A stretch of 64,000 nucleotides of DNA from Pseudomonadota bacterium (GCA_039822145.1 JBCBMU010000001.1:116400-180399), one strand, 5' to 3'. Counted from the stretch's first letter, positions 1-51,898 are shown. Program-made: numbers and translations. The notes: generated by a model not told the origin, from the letters alone.

Positions 1-846
1 CGCTATGACGTATTTTTGGTCAGCACAGTCGCTGATCGTGAGAAAGCCGAGCTGATTGCGCGCCGGTTACGGGCGCTAAAGTTCAAAGTCCGGTTGGACA
101 AGAAACGCGAACATACAACGCCGACCCCACGCGATTACCGCGATGCCGACAATTCTCAATCGGTTCTGGTCCTATGGTCGAAGAGCGCCTGTGATACCAG
201 CAATAGCGATAGCGATTGGGTGCACGCCATTGCCCACCATGCGCGCTCCAAGCCCGGTGTGCTTTTGCAGTCCGGTCTCGATAAGACGGTTCCCGACGAA
301 CCGTTTAATGATGATAAGCGTTACGCCTTATCTGGCATGGGGCCGCGCAAACTGGTGGGCGGCTATTTTGAGCTTGTCGATGAGCTAGGGCGCCGCGATG
401 GTCGTAAAGACCTCCGGGCGTGGCTCGATCTAAAGCCGAGCGATAAAGATGGCAAAGCCGCATGGCTTGAGGCTCACCCGACGGATCCGCTGGCCGGCGT
501 GAAAAAGCCGGCGGCGACACAAGCTGCTCCAGCGGCGTCCGCCGCGGCGGAGAAAACGCCAATGCGAATTGGCGCGCCGCCGCTTAAGATCAATCCCCCG
601 GTTCCGCCTGAGCCGCAAGGGTTGGACATTGGACGGATCATGTTGGCGGCTGTTGGCCTCGTCATTCTGGCGATGCTGGTGATGAGTGCGAGCCTCCGAA
701 CCCAAGCCGGGTTGCCAGCGGCAGCGGGCGCCGGCGGTTTATTGCAAGACTGCCCGGCCGGCCAAATTCCTGATTATCTCTTAGACGATGCGTCGCGCGG
801 AACGTTGGAGCCTGGCCCGATCACCGACGATACGAGCGACGACTAG
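1..846 (+). CDS. TIR-like domain membrane protein, 5'-partial
   Basis: Frame is open from base 1 (RYDVFLVSTVADREKAELIARRL...VLVLWSKSA...SDWV), resembling bacterial TIR_2. Followed by an Ala/Pro linker and one hydrophobic helix (IMLAAVGLVILAMLVM). Confidence 0.6.
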   Translation, partial: RYDVFLVSTVADREKAELIARRLRALKFKVRLDKKREHTTPTPRDYRDADNSQSVLVLWSKSACDTSNSDSDWVHAIAHHARSKPGVLLQSGLDKTVPDEPFNDDKRYALSGMGPRKLVGGYFELVDELGRRDGRKDLRAWLDLKPSDKDGKAAWLEAHPTDPLAGVKKPAATQAAPAASAAAEKTPMRIGAPPLKINPPVPPEPQGLDIGRIMLAAVGLVILAMLVMSASLRTQAGLPAAAGAGGLLQDCPAGQIPDYLLDDASRGTLEPGPITDDTSDD

Positions 847-852
847 GCGCGG

Positions 853-1542
853 CTATTTTTGCTGTTTGGGGTCATGCTTTGGGGCAGGTGCGAGGCGCAT
901 AACTTCGGTTTGAAAGCGCTCATCATTCTGCTCCATCAGCATCGGAAGTGCTTTTGAACAGGCATTGATCAGGGCGTCGCGCCAAGCTTCATCGGCTTTT
1001 GAAAAATCGGCCAAGACATAAGGCATAACGCGCGACTTATCGCCGGGGTGACCGACGCCCATGCGCACGCGCCGAACGTCTGCGCCGACATGCGCAATCA
1101 TTGAACGAATGCCATTATTTCCGGAATGCCCACCGCCGCGCTTGACCCGCATACGGCCCGGCGCAAGGTCGATTTCATCGTGGAAAATCGTCACATCTTC
1201 GGCCGTGAGTTTGTAAAATTTGATCGCCGCTTGAGCGGCCCGCCCGGTTTCATTGTAATAGGTCTCAGGCTTCATCAGCAGGACTTTTTCACTGCCGATG
1301 TGGCCTTCGCAGACCTGACTTTGAAATTTCGCCCGCCATGGCCCAAAGCCGTGATCTGCGGCAATGGCATCTAAGACCATAAAACCGAAATTGTGCCGAT
1401 TGCGCTGGTATTTAGGGTCCGGATTACCTTGTCCTACCAGAATTTGCATGATCGGCTCCGCGGTCTCTATGGGCTCTGAATCAATAATGGCGGGACGGCC
1501 ACGAAGCCACCCCGCCATTTTGTTTAAGATCGATTTGATCAC
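853..1542 (-). CDS. pth: Peptidyl-tRNA hydrolase (alternative start ATG 1449)
   Basis: GNP..Y..NRHNFGF and HDEID motifs; sits directly after rplY. Confidence 0.95.
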   Translation of the reverse strand: MIKSILNKMAGWLRGRPAIIDSEPIETAEPIMQILVGQGNPDPKYQRNRHNFGFMVLDAIAADHGFGPWRAKFQSQVCEGHIGSEKVLLMKPETYYNETGRAAQAAIKFYKLTAEDVTIFHDEIDLAPGRMRVKRGGGHSGNNGIRSMIAHVGADVRRVRMGVGHPGDKSRVMPYVLADFSKADEAWRDALINACSKALPMLMEQNDERFQTEVMRLAPAPKHDPKQQK

Positions 1543-1544
1543 TC

Positions 1545-2195
1545 TTATTCTTCGTCGCCGCTCTGCTTGGTGGCTTCGACTTCGCCGGCCTCTGGAGCGC
1601 CTTCTTCTTCGGTCTCAGCGTCTGCAGCGATGCCGCGACCAACGATCGATGCGATGGTGAAGTCGCGATCTGTAATGGTTGGCTCGGCCCCTGCGGGTAG
1701 ATTGATGTTTGAGATTTTGACATTGTCGCCAATGTCGAGACCGGTCAGGTCTGCGTCCAGTGAATCTGGAATGCTGTCGGCGCGAACGTTGAGCTCTACC
1801 GCGAAGCGAACGACGTTCAACGCGCCGCCTTTCTTAAGACCAGGAGAGGCTTCCTCATTAAGGAAGTTCACAACCACTTCAACTGTGATGATCTGGTCGC
1901 GTTTGACGCGGAACAGATCGACGTGCTGTGGCTGGTCTGTGACCGGGTGCATTTGGATGGCTTGCGGGATCACCATCTGCTTTTGGCCATCATGAACCAG
2001 AGTTGCCGTTGAAGACAGGAATTGACCCGTATTGATCGCTTTGATCACTTCATTCTGCTTCAGGCTGATCGCCACCGGATCTTCGCCGCCGCCATAAAGA
2101 ACGCCTGGAACCATGCCCATACGACGCGCTTCACGAGAGCCGCCTTTTCCAGTGCGCTCACGCACGGTGACGTTAAATGTAATATCTGTAGACAT
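1545..2195 (-). CDS. rplY: 50S ribosomal protein L25 / Ctc
   Basis: GKGGSREARRMGMVPGVLYG, Q.HPV...HVDL, GLKKGG; long Ctc form with acidic tail. Confidence 0.96.
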   Translation of the reverse strand: MSTDITFNVTVRERTGKGGSREARRMGMVPGVLYGGGEDPVAISLKQNEVIKAINTGQFLSSTATLVHDGQKQMVIPQAIQMHPVTDQPQHVDLFRVKRDQIITVEVVVNFLNEEASPGLKKGGALNVVRFAVELNVRADSIPDSLDADLTGLDIGDNVKISNINLPAGAEPTITDRDFTIASIVGRGIAADAETEEEGAPEAGEVEATKQSGDEE

Positions 2196-2289
2196 ATTCT
2201 TTCCTTTCGCCCTGAAGTCCGCCCCGAACCCGGTCCGAGGTGACAGCCTGACAGGAACGGCCTATCGCCGCCCTTTCTTTAAGGCGCTG

Positions 2290-2318
2290 CCTATACGGGA
2301 AAGCCGTCGCAGCGGCAA
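2290..2318 (-). promoter_or_regulatory. Putative sigma70 promoter of rplY-pth
   Basis: Minus strand TTGCCG-N17-TATAGG, about 95 nt upstream of the ATG. Confidence 0.5.
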
Positions 2319-48630: not shown

Positions 48631-49395
48631 ATGAACAACTTCAACTCATCCATGGCGCAAGGCCGGACGATGGATATGAGCGTGAATGTGGGCCTACGCT
48701 CTTTCATGCTCGGTGTGTATAACAAGCTCGCGCTTGGTATCGCGGTTTCAGGCATCATTGCTTACATTGCAGGGTCTGTCGCGCCTGTTAGCGCCGCGAT
48801 TTATTCGGCGCCGATGATGTACATTGTGATGTTCGCGCCTGTCGCTCTGATTCTGGGCTCGATGTTCATGATGCGCAATCCAAGCCCAGCGGGCAGCGCC
48901 TTTCTATATTGGGCGATTGTTGTCGCCTTAGGTCTCTCCATGGGCGTCTACTTCCTCATGGCCAATCTCGGCGTGGGCGGGATGACGCATTTCGTCATCA
49001 CCAAAGCCTTCTTGGCAACATCTGCGACTTTCGCTGGCCTGTCGCTGTTCGGCTATACGACCAAGCGCGACCTCGGTCCGATTGGGACGTTTGCGATTAT
49101 GGGCCTTTGGGGCGCTTTCATTATCGGCATGCTGTTCGCAGTTCTGCCAATGATCTTCCCGAGCGTGCCATTCTTTGAAGTCGGCAGCCCAATGCAGCTG
49201 ATCATTTCAGGCGCTTTTGCTCTATTTTCTGCGATCCTGATCGCTTGGAACACACAGTCTTTGAAAGAAACCTATTTTGCGCTTGGCGGTGACCAGCGCG
49301 GAATGGCGGTTGCAACCAATATGGGTGCGCTGAACTTCTTCATCTATTTTGTGAACATCTTCCAATTCTTCTTGTCGATGATGTCGAGCGACTAA
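48631..49395 (+). CDS. Bax inhibitor-1/YccA family protein
   Basis: GLRSFMLGVYN, YGYTTKRDL-like motif, about 7 TM segments. Confidence 0.92.
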   Translation: MNNFNSSMAQGRTMDMSVNVGLRSFMLGVYNKLALGIAVSGIIAYIAGSVAPVSAAIYSAPMMYIVMFAPVALILGSMFMMRNPSPAGSAFLYWAIVVALGLSMGVYFLMANLGVGGMTHFVITKAFLATSATFAGLSLFGYTTKRDLGPIGTFAIMGLWGAFIIGMLFAVLPMIFPSVPFFEVGSPMQLIISGAFALFSAILIAWNTQSLKETYFALGGDQRGMAVATNMGALNFFIYFVNIFQFFLSMMSSD

Positions 49396-49414
49396 GGTCG
49401 ACTCCAACTCAATC

Positions 49415-49445
49415 AAAAACCCCGGCCAAGTGCCGGGGTTTTTTT
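49415..49445 (+). terminator. Rho-independent terminator
   Basis: AAAAACCCCGGC-caagt-GCCGGGGTTTTTTT. Confidence 0.85.
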
Positions 49446-49476
49446 GTTTGACCTTGCGGTGAAGTTTCGTATCCTG

Positions 49477-49491
49477 GAACAAGACAGGAAC
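49477..49491 (+). promoter_or_regulatory. Alphaproteobacterial LexA (SOS) box
   Basis: GAAC-aagacag-GAAC, downstream of TTGACC (49448). Confidence 0.85.
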
Positions 49492-49508
49492 ACGGGAGGG
49501 CCGCGCAC

Positions 49509-49952
49509 ATGCAGAAGACCGGTGCTGAAACACCGAATGATCCGCGGGCTGCGCAGATTGCGCGCGGAGTTTTGCGGCTCCTTCACGATCACGGTTATGC
49601 TGGGGTCACTGAAATGACGCTGGCCAATGGTCGCCGCGCCGATGTCGCCGCGATCGGGCCAGGCGGCGAGATTACGATTGTTGAGATTAAATCCTCCATT
49701 GCCGATTTTCGCAGCGATCAGAAATGGCCAGACTATCGGCCTTTTTGTGACCGCTTCTATTTTGCTGTCGGCGAAGACTTTCCGCAGGATCTTATTCCCG
49801 AAGAGACCGGTCTGATCATTGCCGATGCCTATGGCGGCGCGATTGTCCGCGAGCCGGCCTGTGAGAAATTGGTGGCGGCCCGGCGCAAAGCTGTCACGCT
49901 TCGATTTGCGCGCCTTGCAGCGGCGCGCTTATGCCAGCCGGTGATTGCGTGA
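49509..49952 (+). CDS. mmcB: MmcB family DNA repair protein
   Basis: LANGRRADV, IVEIKSS..DF..D.KW.DY..FCDRFYFAV; SOS box upstream. Confidence 0.9.
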   Translation: MQKTGAETPNDPRAAQIARGVLRLLHDHGYAGVTEMTLANGRRADVAAIGPGGEITIVEIKSSIADFRSDQKWPDYRPFCDRFYFAVGEDFPQDLIPEETGLIIADAYGGAIVREPACEKLVAARRKAVTLRFARLAAARLCQPVIA

Positions 49953-49997
49953 CAAAGCCTATGGACTCTTTGATCAGGCAAACCTAGCTGCACACGC

Positions 49998-50435
49998 ATG
50001 AGCCATGTTTATCCTCTCGGCAAAACCGCCAAAGACGCGCTGCAAAATGCGCCAGCGGCAGCGCGTACCCGCTATGAAGCTGAAGCGCTGGCCGACGGCG
50101 TCGCGATTGCAGCGCTGGAGACCGAATGGCTGACGCCAGCGGCGCAAGATTTGGAAACGATCTTAGCGCAAGCCGAAGACAATCCAGGGCACGGATTTGT
50201 CCAGCATTATGAAGACGCGGCGGGCAACACAGTGCTGGCGGTGACCTATTGGAAGCTCGCGAAGGCGCCGAAGAAAGCCAAGCCGAAATCGCCTGCTAAG
50301 CCTGACGCCAAATCTGAGGCGCAAGACCATACGGATGATTTATATTTTAAATCAGGCCGCACCAAAAAGAGCCGGCGAAAGGCTTTCCTCGATCCAAATC
50401 AGATGGACTTGTTTGGCGCGGCGAAGGAAGACTAA
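49998..50435 (+). CDS. Hypothetical protein with C-terminal QMDLF motif
   Basis: Coding-like ORF; Lys/Pro/Ala-rich segment; DPNQMDLF near the C-terminus. Confidence 0.75.
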   Translation: MSHVYPLGKTAKDALQNAPAAARTRYEAEALADGVAIAALETEWLTPAAQDLETILAQAEDNPGHGFVQHYEDAAGNTVLAVTYWKLAKAPKKAKPKSPAKPDAKSEAQDHTDDLYFKSGRTKKSRRKAFLDPNQMDLFGAAKED

Positions 50436-50953
50436 GCTGGCTTAAAGGTCAGCGCGACACCATTATTGCAATAGCGCAGACCCGTTGGCGCCGGGCCGTC
50501 TTTGAACACATGGCCATGGTGTCCGCCGCAGCGCGCGCAGTGATATTCAGTGCGCGTCATCCACAGCTTATTGTCTTCCTTAAAGCCGAGCGTGCCGGGA
50601 ATATAATCATAGAAACTCGGCCAACCGGTGCCGCTATCATATTTGGTTTGGCTCTCGAAAATGGCCAAATCGCAGCCAGCGCAATGAAACACACCGTCGC
50701 GTTTTTCCTCATTCAAAGACGACGTGAAGGCGCGTTCTGTCGCTTCTTCGCGGAGCACACGATAGGCCAAAGGGGAGAGGCGCGCTTTCCACTCTTCGGG
50801 GGTCAGCTTGCGCCATTCACTGTCGGCAAACTCACCGGCAATGGCCTCTGCATAAGCACGATTATTTTGTCCGGCGCCGGAACAAGCGGCGATTAGGCCA
50901 AGCGGGGCGGCGAGCAAAAAGCTGCGGCGTGGGAGATCAATCTTATCAGTCAT
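50432..50953 (-). CDS. msrB: Methionine-R-sulfoxide reductase with Tat-like signal
   Basis: RRSFLL N-terminus; TERAF, KYDSGTGWPSF, GHHGHVF.DGP.PTGLRYC.N. Confidence 0.93.
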   Translation of the reverse strand: MTDKIDLPRRSFLLAAPLGLIAACSGAGQNNRAYAEAIAGEFADSEWRKLTPEEWKARLSPLAYRVLREEATERAFTSSLNEEKRDGVFHCAGCDLAIFESQTKYDSGTGWPSFYDYIPGTLGFKEDNKLWMTRTEYHCARCGGHHGHVFKDGPAPTGLRYCNNGVALTFKPA

Positions 50954-51028: not shown

Positions 51029-51119
51029 CTGCAAGTGACCAGAATTGTCTCTCGCTTTGATACCGATTTGCGATTAGGGAGCGGAAACCTGATTGCGAAG
51101 CCTGTTAAGAGATTTGTCG

Positions 51120-51380
51120 ATGACCGAACCTATGAACGATACGCTAACTGAAACTGCCCGCGATAAATTGCGCCTCACAGTTGAGCGGATAGAGCGCTTA
51201 GAAGAAGAAAAAAAAGAGATCGCCGAGCAAATCAAAGAAGTTTACGGCGAAGCGAAAGCGCTCGGATATGACACAAAAGCGCTGCGCTCTGTGGTCCGCT
51301 TGCGCAAGCAAGACCGCCAAGAGCGCGAAGAGCAGGAAGCGATTTTAGAAGTGTATCTTGACGCACTTGGCGAGATCTAA
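51120..51380 (+). CDS. gapR: GapR / DUF2312 nucleoid-associated protein
   Basis: [39 protein letters not shown]...Y...LGEI. Confidence 0.88.
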
Positions 51381-51424
51381 GCTCTATTCTTGCCTGCACA
51401 GGGCGGATGGCATTATGGAAGGCC

Positions 51425-51898
51425 ATGCCCCGCGACGTTGATGACCGCAAAAAACGCAAAGCTCTGCGGAAAATTCGCAAAGCCGCGATGCTTGCCGAGC
51501 AAGGTTTAGGGCCGCCTTTATCGGACTGGGAAAAGCAATTCCTAGAAGAAGTTGAACAGCGGATTGAGACTTATGGCTCAGCCTTTCATGACCTCGAAAA
51601 AGGCGGCGCCGACGAAGCCTTATCGTCTCTTCAATTTGTGAAACTCCGTGAGATTGACAAAAAAGCCCGCGGGAAGGGCAAGTCTGGGTTTCGAAAATCG
51701 AATGGTTTCAAGCGCAAAACACCGCCGCGCGCGCGCCAGATTGATGAAGACATAGACGATGCGCCGCCGCCTGAGAAAACCGGGCCGCAATTGGTTCGGG
51801 CCCGTGATTTGGCGCCATCCCGCGATGCAGCGCCGCCGCCCAGGGCTATATCCCGTCCCGCACTGCGCGTGATCCAGGGCGGCGCCGAGAAGGACTAA
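51425..51898 (+). CDS. Basic hypothetical protein
   Basis: Coding-like ORF, Lys/Arg-rich, ends LRVIQGG; start uncertain (51407 or 51425). Confidence 0.7.
   Translation: MPRDVDDRKKRKALRKIRKAAMLAEQGLGPPLSDWEKQFLEEVEQRIETYGSAFHDLEKGGADEALSSLQFVKLREIDKKARGKGKSGFRKSNGFKRKTPPRARQIDEDIDDAPPPEKTGPQLVRARDLAPSRDAAPPPRAISRPALRVIQGGAEKD

Follow-up and report, generated by a model that had tools for sequence, protein, structure and literature searches.

A conserved protein with a candidate clamp-binding tail encoded behind LexA-boxed mmcB in Hyphomonadaceae

Within a 64,000-nucleotide stretch of DNA from a Pseudomonadota bacterium (GCA_039822145.1, JBCBMU010000001.1:116400-180399), called the window below, the gene mmcB is followed directly, on the same strand, by an open reading frame (ORF) for a conserved protein of 145 amino acids that belongs to no named family (49998..50435, stop included, + strand). 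The protein ends in a disordered tail that carries the pentapeptide QMDLF, which resembles the peptides that dock on the bacterial sliding clamp, DnaN. The comparison of related genomes described here makes SOS co-regulation of the ORF with mmcB well supported, and a role of its product as a partner of the DnaN clamp is plausible on the strength of its conserved motif.

The transcription unit has its 5' limit at an intrinsic terminator (49415..49443, + strand; a 12-bp stem with seven GC pairs, followed by a T-run) that belongs to the upstream Bax1-I/YccA-type gene (48631..49395; PF01027, E 5e-35). Beyond it lies a sigma-70-type promoter-like site, TTGACC-16-TATCCT (49448..49475, + strand). In a consensus scan of positions 49300-50600, this was the single promoter-like site, and the terminator was the single terminator-like site on the + strand. 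Directly adjoining the -10 element, and spanning the position where transcription is expected to begin, is the LexA (SOS) box GAACAAGACAGGAAC (49477..49491), a GAAC-N7-GAAC sequence and as such the GTTC-N7-GTTC motif in reverse complement; the ATG of mmcB is 18 nt downstream. The first-pass annotation had described mmcB as SOS-boxed, and the box is indeed in place.

The mmcB gene itself (49509..49952, + strand) encodes a PD-(D/E)XK-type MmcB-like nuclease of 147 amino acids (PF06319, E 1.8e-56), matching profile positions 11-143 of 148 with 190.4 bits at a cut-off of 22 bits. Its TGA stop ends at 49952 and the ATG of the ORF lies at 49998, leaving a 45-nt spacer (49953..49997, + strand) that is in frame with both genes. 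The scan found neither terminator-like nor promoter-like sites in this spacer, in agreement with the earlier description of a same-strand gap with no obvious terminator. The 3' limit of the unit is the convergent msrB (SelR) gene (50432..50953, - strand; PF01641, E 7e-45), the 3' end of which overlaps the stop of the ORF by 4 nt; no terminator was seen at this junction, and the convergent arrangement is retained in most Henriciella-like loci. A side observation concerns the reading frame that mmcB and the ORF share: the two are 16 codons apart, and the only stops between them are TGA 49950 and TGA 49971. In-frame pairs are found in 20 of 33 related two-gene loci (about 11 expected), a count taken from related, hence not independent, genomes.

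The LexA operator consensus in Caulobacter is GTTCN7GTTC (PMC9578287). A genome-wide listing of exact GAAC-N7-GAAC and GTTC-N7-GTTC sites in the 3.86 Mb of the window's genome gives 84 sites, 22 of which are intergenic and near a gene start. Two exact boxes lie between ssb and a divergent 988-aa gene (UvrA, by eye reading), and others precede RecN-like SMC_N, rmuC, ComM-type Mg-chelatase-like, radical-SAM and DprA-like genes; the boxed rmuC sits just upstream of the window. A 547-aa ORF, the presumed imuB, stands ahead of a second DnaE-type polymerase gene and has a further exact box about 0.4 kb upstream, so that ImuB-DnaE2 is presumably encoded here (candidate regulon boxes: C12:105713-105824, C13:68229, C1:115115, C1:282460, C10:131956, C12:33903 and C10:16990). 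Because the boxed genes form a typical alphaproteobacterial SOS set, the GAAC-N7-GAAC motif is a meaningful SOS box in this genome. The box (exact or with one mismatch) is conserved together with the TTGAC promoter upstream of mmcB in nearly all Hyphomonadaceae loci, and TTGAC..TAT(T/C)CT is kept at the equivalent place in related loci.

The gene order is similarly persistent. Of 61 Hyphomonadaceae genomes, 58, across at least six genera, have a homologue of the ORF as the next gene after mmcB on that strand (adjacency was read from the loci or, for eleven genomes, from match coordinates), and the conservation of synteny proposed earlier as a check is borne out. The mmcB-linked members include proteins just 40-47% identical to the query. 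Most loci have between -4 nt (an ATGA overlap) and about 63 nt from the mmcB stop to the ORF start, and four have 88-513 nt. From the aligned loci, operon structure and operator both appear conserved. On comparative evidence, the description 'SOS-co-regulated' is well supported because of this adjacency, the conserved promoter and LexA box, and the occurrence of the same box at ssb/uvrA, recN-like, rmuC and comM genes.

The linkage is specific to Hyphomonadaceae, because Caulobacter-like genomes have no clamp-motif ORF behind mmcB. In one such locus (L122 of genome G605; 914..1300, - strand), mmcB is followed by a convergent gene that reads by eye as having a RecQ-type HRDC domain in its C-terminal residues. 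MmcB is encoded in 274 of the 301 genomes of the order and the mmcB-linked ORF is confined to Hyphomonadaceae; because MmcB is nearly universal, the phyletic profile is uninformative and holds no co-occurrence signal. No Q..LF tail was found on MmcB itself in 20 genes from four families; MmcB ends just past its core domain.

A word-indexed search returned 357 homologues of the ORF in Henriciella, Hyphomonas and other Hyphomonadaceae, each either unnamed or labelled 'hypothetical protein', and an exhaustive HMMER search gave 78 cluster representatives at 50% identity. A profile and alignment (A1) built from 54 representatives with identities of 50% or less finds one match per genome in all 61 sampled Hyphomonadaceae, the window's genome included; in a single genome (G454), the match consists of two adjacent pieces of a split ORF. 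These hundreds of homologues under amino-acid-level selection rule out a spurious ORF, and by comparative evidence the ORF can be taken as a real gene. In a 400-genome sample of the class, A1 matched one other genome only, a chance match to an FtsK linker. The FtsK concerned, from another alphaproteobacterium (ORF 13..2292, - strand, in L037, G002:C153), has KKQKDKNQLDLFG in the linker before its motor domain, which consists of a basic stretch and a consensus clamp-type peptide; no such motif occurs in the FtsK of the window's genome.

Searches of Pfam, NCBIfam and PHROGs with the ORF protein gave no family above threshold. The only Pfam match, DUF7302, was rejected at 15.1 bits (gathering threshold 24.9; E 0.031), and it spans residues 73-109, low-complexity linker included. 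A PDB profile search likewise returned nothing significant; its top match (E 0.56), a PCNA-bound Srs2 tail peptide (3v62), is a curiosity only. An SOS division inhibitor of the SidA/DidA type is ruled out by the lack of a membrane segment, and no literature on this protein or on the SOS regulon of Hyphomonadaceae was found. The protein comes in two lengths within the window's GTDB genus. In the long form, of about 172-179 aa (seen in a comparison of L038-L047 with L050-L066), the C-terminus is extended by PDxxGYE..NPxxVLxDEEGDGTxFG, and the short form, to which the window's protein belongs, ends a few residues past QMDLF. Many family members, the same-genus long forms among them, carry this extension; the window's protein does not.

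An AlphaFold2 model made with A1 has a mean predicted local distance difference test score (pLDDT) of 85. Residues 1-90 (49998..50267, + strand) form a folded N-terminal domain of beta-alpha-alpha-beta-alpha-beta-beta topology, with block means of 84-97, in which P6, A14, A28, W44 and W85 are invariant among the 54 representatives. Because Foldseek found no significant match to the model (best E 0.5 in PDB and 0.1 in BFVD), this 90-residue domain has no family or fold assignment, and no catalytic domain was detected by Pfam, NCBIfam or PDB fold searches. Past residue 88 the model has no secondary structure, and in the stretch 111-145 pLDDT drops to 56-74.

Four segments make up the remainder of the protein. 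Next to the folded domain is a variable basic linker rich in Lys, Pro and Ala (residues 88-109; 50259..50324, + strand), which is unalignable and of variable length across the family, and along which mean pLDDT declines from 95 (block 81-90) to 84 (91-100) and 73 (101-110). It includes the basic segment AKAPKKAKPKSPAKP (residues 88-102; 50259-50303, + strand), which the first-pass annotation had located correctly, as it had QMDLF near the C-terminus. The linker is followed by DHTDDLYF (residues 110-117; 50325..50348, + strand), a Hyphomonadaceae-specific motif. Its DDLYF core is present in 162 of 184 members, with varying synonymous codons, and is absent from the Terricaulis-like and Phenylobacterium homologues. 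A second basic stretch, KSGRTKKSRRK (residues 118-128; 50349..50381, + strand), lies between this motif and the clamp-type one, and is conserved in the alignment as [RK]xGRTKxxRRR. The candidate beta-clamp-binding motif itself is DPNQMDLF (residues 132-139; 50391..50414, + strand), at a distance of 19-30 residues (median 22) from DHTDDLYF across the family; the ORF peptide that carries QMDLF is RKAFLDPNQMDLFGAAKED.

QMDLF occupies residues 135-139 (50400-50414). Six residues separate it from the C-terminus, and six is also the family median for the length after the motif. The linker before it cannot be aligned, yet among the 54 representatives Q135 and F139 never change, and for D137 and L138 conservation reaches 90% or more. 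The pattern Q-x-x-[LMFI]-F is found in the tail of 180 of 184 full-size members, the four exceptions having frameshift-like C-termini, which bears out the motif conservation that had been put forward as a check. QMDLF is the variant in 108 of these 184 members, QLDLF in 43, QLDMF in 13 and QLELF in 4, with QIDLF, QLDFF, QLGLF, QLVLF and others in single or double cases, and the family consensus is DPNQ[L/M]DLF. At the level of single positions, the first is fixed as Q, the second is L, M or I, the third mostly D and also E, V or G, the fourth L, M or F, and the fifth is fixed as F.

These allowed substitutions agree with the published tolerances of the clamp motif, in which the Gln is fixed, position 2 is aliphatic, position 3 is free with a preference for Asp, position 4 is Leu, Met or Phe and the final Phe is fixed; QLDLF is the consensus peptide that binds the clamp most strongly, and LF can stand in for a terminal LGL with no loss (PMC11139829). 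Of the two clamp-motif patterns, the pentapeptide Q-L/M-[S/D]-L/M-F and the hexapeptide QLxLxL, the motif of the ORF fits the first, and it sits in a predicted disordered terminal tail. Over 59 distinct loci, each motif position is encoded by two to seven codons (four for the Pro and six for the fourth-position Leu, with Met there in two loci). Because synonymous codons vary at every motif position, selection acts on the motif peptide and not on the DNA, and its conservation is, on this comparison, not attributable to chance. It is on conservation inside a disordered tail that the evidential weight rests.

Weaker matches to the N-terminal domain alone occur elsewhere in the order, in a Terricaulis-like family, in Phenylobacterium and in a third family (E 1e-4 to 1e-8 per genome, and 1e-13 to 1e-19 against extracted ORFs). 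The domain is tandemly duplicated in the Terricaulis-like proteins and single, with a long insert, in those of Phenylobacterium (L087-L106). Outside Hyphomonadaceae, the neighbouring gene often encodes a class-A penicillin-binding protein (PBP), or else histidine kinases are encoded nearby, and the distant tails read PQxxLD[I/V/F]GLFE, followed by PENPxxVLxxEEGDG or PPEAPHIxMPDE. The ancestral Caulobacterales protein had, besides the N-terminal domain, a Gln followed by the hydrophobic peptide LD(xG)LF. In Hyphomonadaceae, the move to a place behind LexA-controlled mmcB coincides with the canonical, optimal form of the clamp peptide and with a new segment of DHTDDLYF plus basic residues.

Two further observations concern the neighbouring genes. 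The N-terminus of the msrB product, MTDKIDLPRRSFLLAAPLGLIAAC, resembles a twin-arginine signal followed by a lipobox, which suggests that the MsrB of the window is a periplasmic lipoprotein. Directly after gapR (51093..51380) lies an ORF of 163 aa (51407-51898, + strand) with a basic, Pro/Ala-rich C-terminal end and no Pfam match.

In the mechanism that these features suggest, a single promoter with an overlapping LexA box would drive mmcB and the ORF as one transcript. DNA damage would remove LexA, and MmcB and the ORF protein would then be produced together. By the rules of the clamp motif, Q-[L/M]-D-L-F would insert into the hydrophobic cleft of DnaN, and the adjoining basic stretch could touch the DNA held in the ring. 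The N-terminal domain, DHTDDLYF or both might hold a second partner, for which MmcB, having no clamp motif of its own, would be the obvious candidate. The ORF protein could in this way act as a non-catalytic adaptor similar to ImuB, bringing a repair activity to clamps at stalled forks or crosslinks or keeping it there, and might modulate the hand-over to ImuB-DnaE2. We infer induction by damage, binding to DnaN and any contact with MmcB from operator, motif and gene order; a part in damage tolerance or mutagenesis would be conjecture.

Taken as a whole, the observations find their most economical explanation in a tentative proposal: the ORF protein, under the control of LexA and without catalytic activity, may serve the MmcB pathway by docking on the clamp. 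Several observations weigh against it, and some of them would suit a housekeeping factor of Caulobacterales whose tail binds a partner other than DnaN and whose position behind mmcB is a lineage-specific accident of gene order with no coupling to repair. The pentapeptide alone is weak evidence and is not diagnostic: Q[LM][SD][LM]F occurs in 5 of the 3668 crude ORFs of this genome, where 2.7 are expected, and in the other four (a threonyl-tRNA synthetase, a CorC-type transporter, a periplasmic protease and a sulfotransferase-like protein) it lies inside a folded region, so that it arises by chance in unrelated enzymes; relaxed patterns match many folded enzymes of the genome. Two Ponticaulis genomes have the gene behind purA and Hyphomonas sp. 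FCG-A18 has it behind a 369-aa gene, in each case with mmcB elsewhere in the genome. Because these unlinked copies keep both protein motifs, the function is not strictly dependent on co-expression with MmcB. Homologues outside Hyphomonadaceae are not near mmcB and have no SOS box upstream, a result that for the Terricaulis-like and Phenylobacterium genes covers about 3 kb, and an exact box is absent upstream of all the unlinked homologues (Ponticaulis, Hyphomonas sp. FCG-A18, Terricaulis-like and Phenylobacterium); the two exact boxes present in such loci are elsewhere, about 1 kb upstream (L087) and at a neighbouring mmcB some 2.3 kb off (L100). The distant PQxxLDxGLFE is non-canonical and resembles a hexapeptide form, with an extra Gly and with the Gln placed three residues ahead of the Leu, and its company, an NPxxVLxxEEGDG tail and PBP or histidine-kinase neighbours, points to the housekeeping account, as does the near-universal MmcB with its missing co-occurrence signal. 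From its distribution, the family is older than its link to mmcB. Where the first-pass annotation proposed a possible SOS-coregulated clamp partner, the co-regulation is well supported by comparison and the clamp role is plausible, and the pairing with mmcB is the younger state of an older family. Caulobacter-like genomes have a convergent RecQ-like gene next to mmcB, and MmcB works there without a neighbour like the ORF. An AlphaFold model of an in-frame mmcB-ORF read-through chain, with 19 similarly read relatives, shows no sign of MmcB contact, in a model too poor to count (mean pLDDT 48, tail about 30). What stands against the housekeeping account is the agreement of the tail peptide with the optimal clamp consensus at five positions of five, in a disordered C-terminal tail that varies only as the clamp tolerates, together with the 58 adjacencies in 61 genomes and at least six genera, which, with their 4-nt overlaps, are tighter than is usual for neutral gene order. 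On balance, such a factor seems rather unlikely.

The same peptide would also serve a protein that simply occupies the clamp on SOS induction, slowing or pausing replication, or displacing Pol III or other clients, so as to gain time for repair, and not touching MmcB at all. Among consensus peptides the family's QLDLF binds most strongly, and the window's QMDLF is the commonest variant, and overexpression of a QLDLF peptide is inhibitory in E. coli (PMC11139829); the failure to detect a catalytic domain and the read-through model, which gave no sign of MmcB contact at its mean pLDDT of 48, fit this idea as well. A plain competitor, on the other hand, would have no need of a conserved 90-residue domain and DHTDDLYF, and constitutive expression, as suggested by the Ponticaulis copy behind purA with no SOS box, would be odd for a replication brake; a pure competitor is accordingly judged improbable. 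If instead the protein were a dedicated regulator of MmcB (an inhibitor, chaperone or activator) acting through its N-terminal domain or DHTDDLYF, with QMDLF serving that same interaction, then the tight operon linkage with its overlaps would be explained, and also the restriction of DHTDDLYF to the one family with the mmcB linkage. Yet MmcB is present without the ORF protein in most of the order and is functional in Caulobacter, the unlinked copies retain all motifs, and the read-through fusion model, of low quality, lends no support, which leaves a regulator of this kind very improbable.

To return to the clamp-docking partner of the MmcB pathway, its strictest version would be a dedicated adaptor that tethers MmcB to the clamp, with QMDLF bound to DnaN and the N-terminal domain or DHTDDLYF bound to MmcB; so specific an arrangement is improbable. 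MmcB has been proposed to unhook mitomycin C crosslinks in Caulobacter, making a substrate for ImuC, and to act with translesion synthesis; its enzymatic activity is not yet shown, and the ways in which it finds and processes crosslinks and connects to translesion synthesis are hypothetical even there (PMC13705206). If the tethering adaptor is real, it would form part of an SOS-inducible crosslink-unhooking module, independent of nucleotide excision repair, that works on stalled replisomes and passes the gap on to ImuB-DnaE2. Bacteria would then have their own counterpart to clamp-coupled crosslink repair, based on a domain not described before. In the broader version, an optimal clamp-docking peptide on a co-expressed neighbour of MmcB would offer a concrete physical route from a stalled replisome to MmcB, and the few SOS-induced partners of the clamp would gain a new non-catalytic member. 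The scope is that of one marine alphaproteobacterial family, to which the mmcB-linked form is limited, and whatever goes beyond gene order and motif conservation is inferred. The structure of the N-terminal domain and the identity of its ligand would be new information under any of the explanations considered.

Among known systems, a close parallel in role is ImuB, the catalytically dead, damage-inducible Y-family hub of the ImuA-ImuB-DnaE2 mutasome, which cannot function without ImuB's short clamp-binding motif (QLPLWG in mycobacteria), the tether of a partner enzyme to DnaN (PMC10421592). The ORF protein also carries a clamp-type motif, is predicted to be non-catalytic and damage-inducible, and appears to share an operon with the enzyme it may serve. 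It has no kinship with ImuB in sequence or fold, however, being a protein of 145 residues with an orphan alpha/beta domain that does not belong to the Y family, and its clamp binding is predicted. With the canonical clamp clients Pol II (QLGLF), Pol IV (QLVLGL), UmuC (QLNLF), Hda (QLSLPL) and Pol III alpha (QADMF), it shares an exposed terminal Q-L/M-x-L/M-F, and the family variants QLDLF, QMDLF, QLDMF, QLGLF and QLVLF overlap with their motifs. Whereas those clients are enzymes or AAA+ regulators, the ORF protein has no recognisable catalytic or nucleotide-binding domain.

The SocB toxin of Caulobacter is a DnaN-binding inhibitor of replication and is coupled, in the manner of a toxin-antitoxin system, to SocA, an adaptor of ClpXP. 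Like SocB, the ORF protein is a small Caulobacterales protein predicted to act through DnaN; unlike SocB, it is unpaired, it is unrelated in sequence, and its gene, present in single copy, belongs to the universal core of Hyphomonadaceae. In eukaryotes, the PIP-box proteins p15PAF and p21 have a disordered basic segment beside their clamp-docking peptide and can contact ring and DNA simultaneously. The ORF protein likewise has a disordered basic segment that flanks its clamp-type peptide, a likeness by analogy only, since in the eukaryotic proteins the clamp is PCNA, the motif is another one and there is no homology. With the MmcB-like family PF06319, finally, the ORF appears to share a transcription unit and a LexA box, but its product has no sequence similarity to MmcB.

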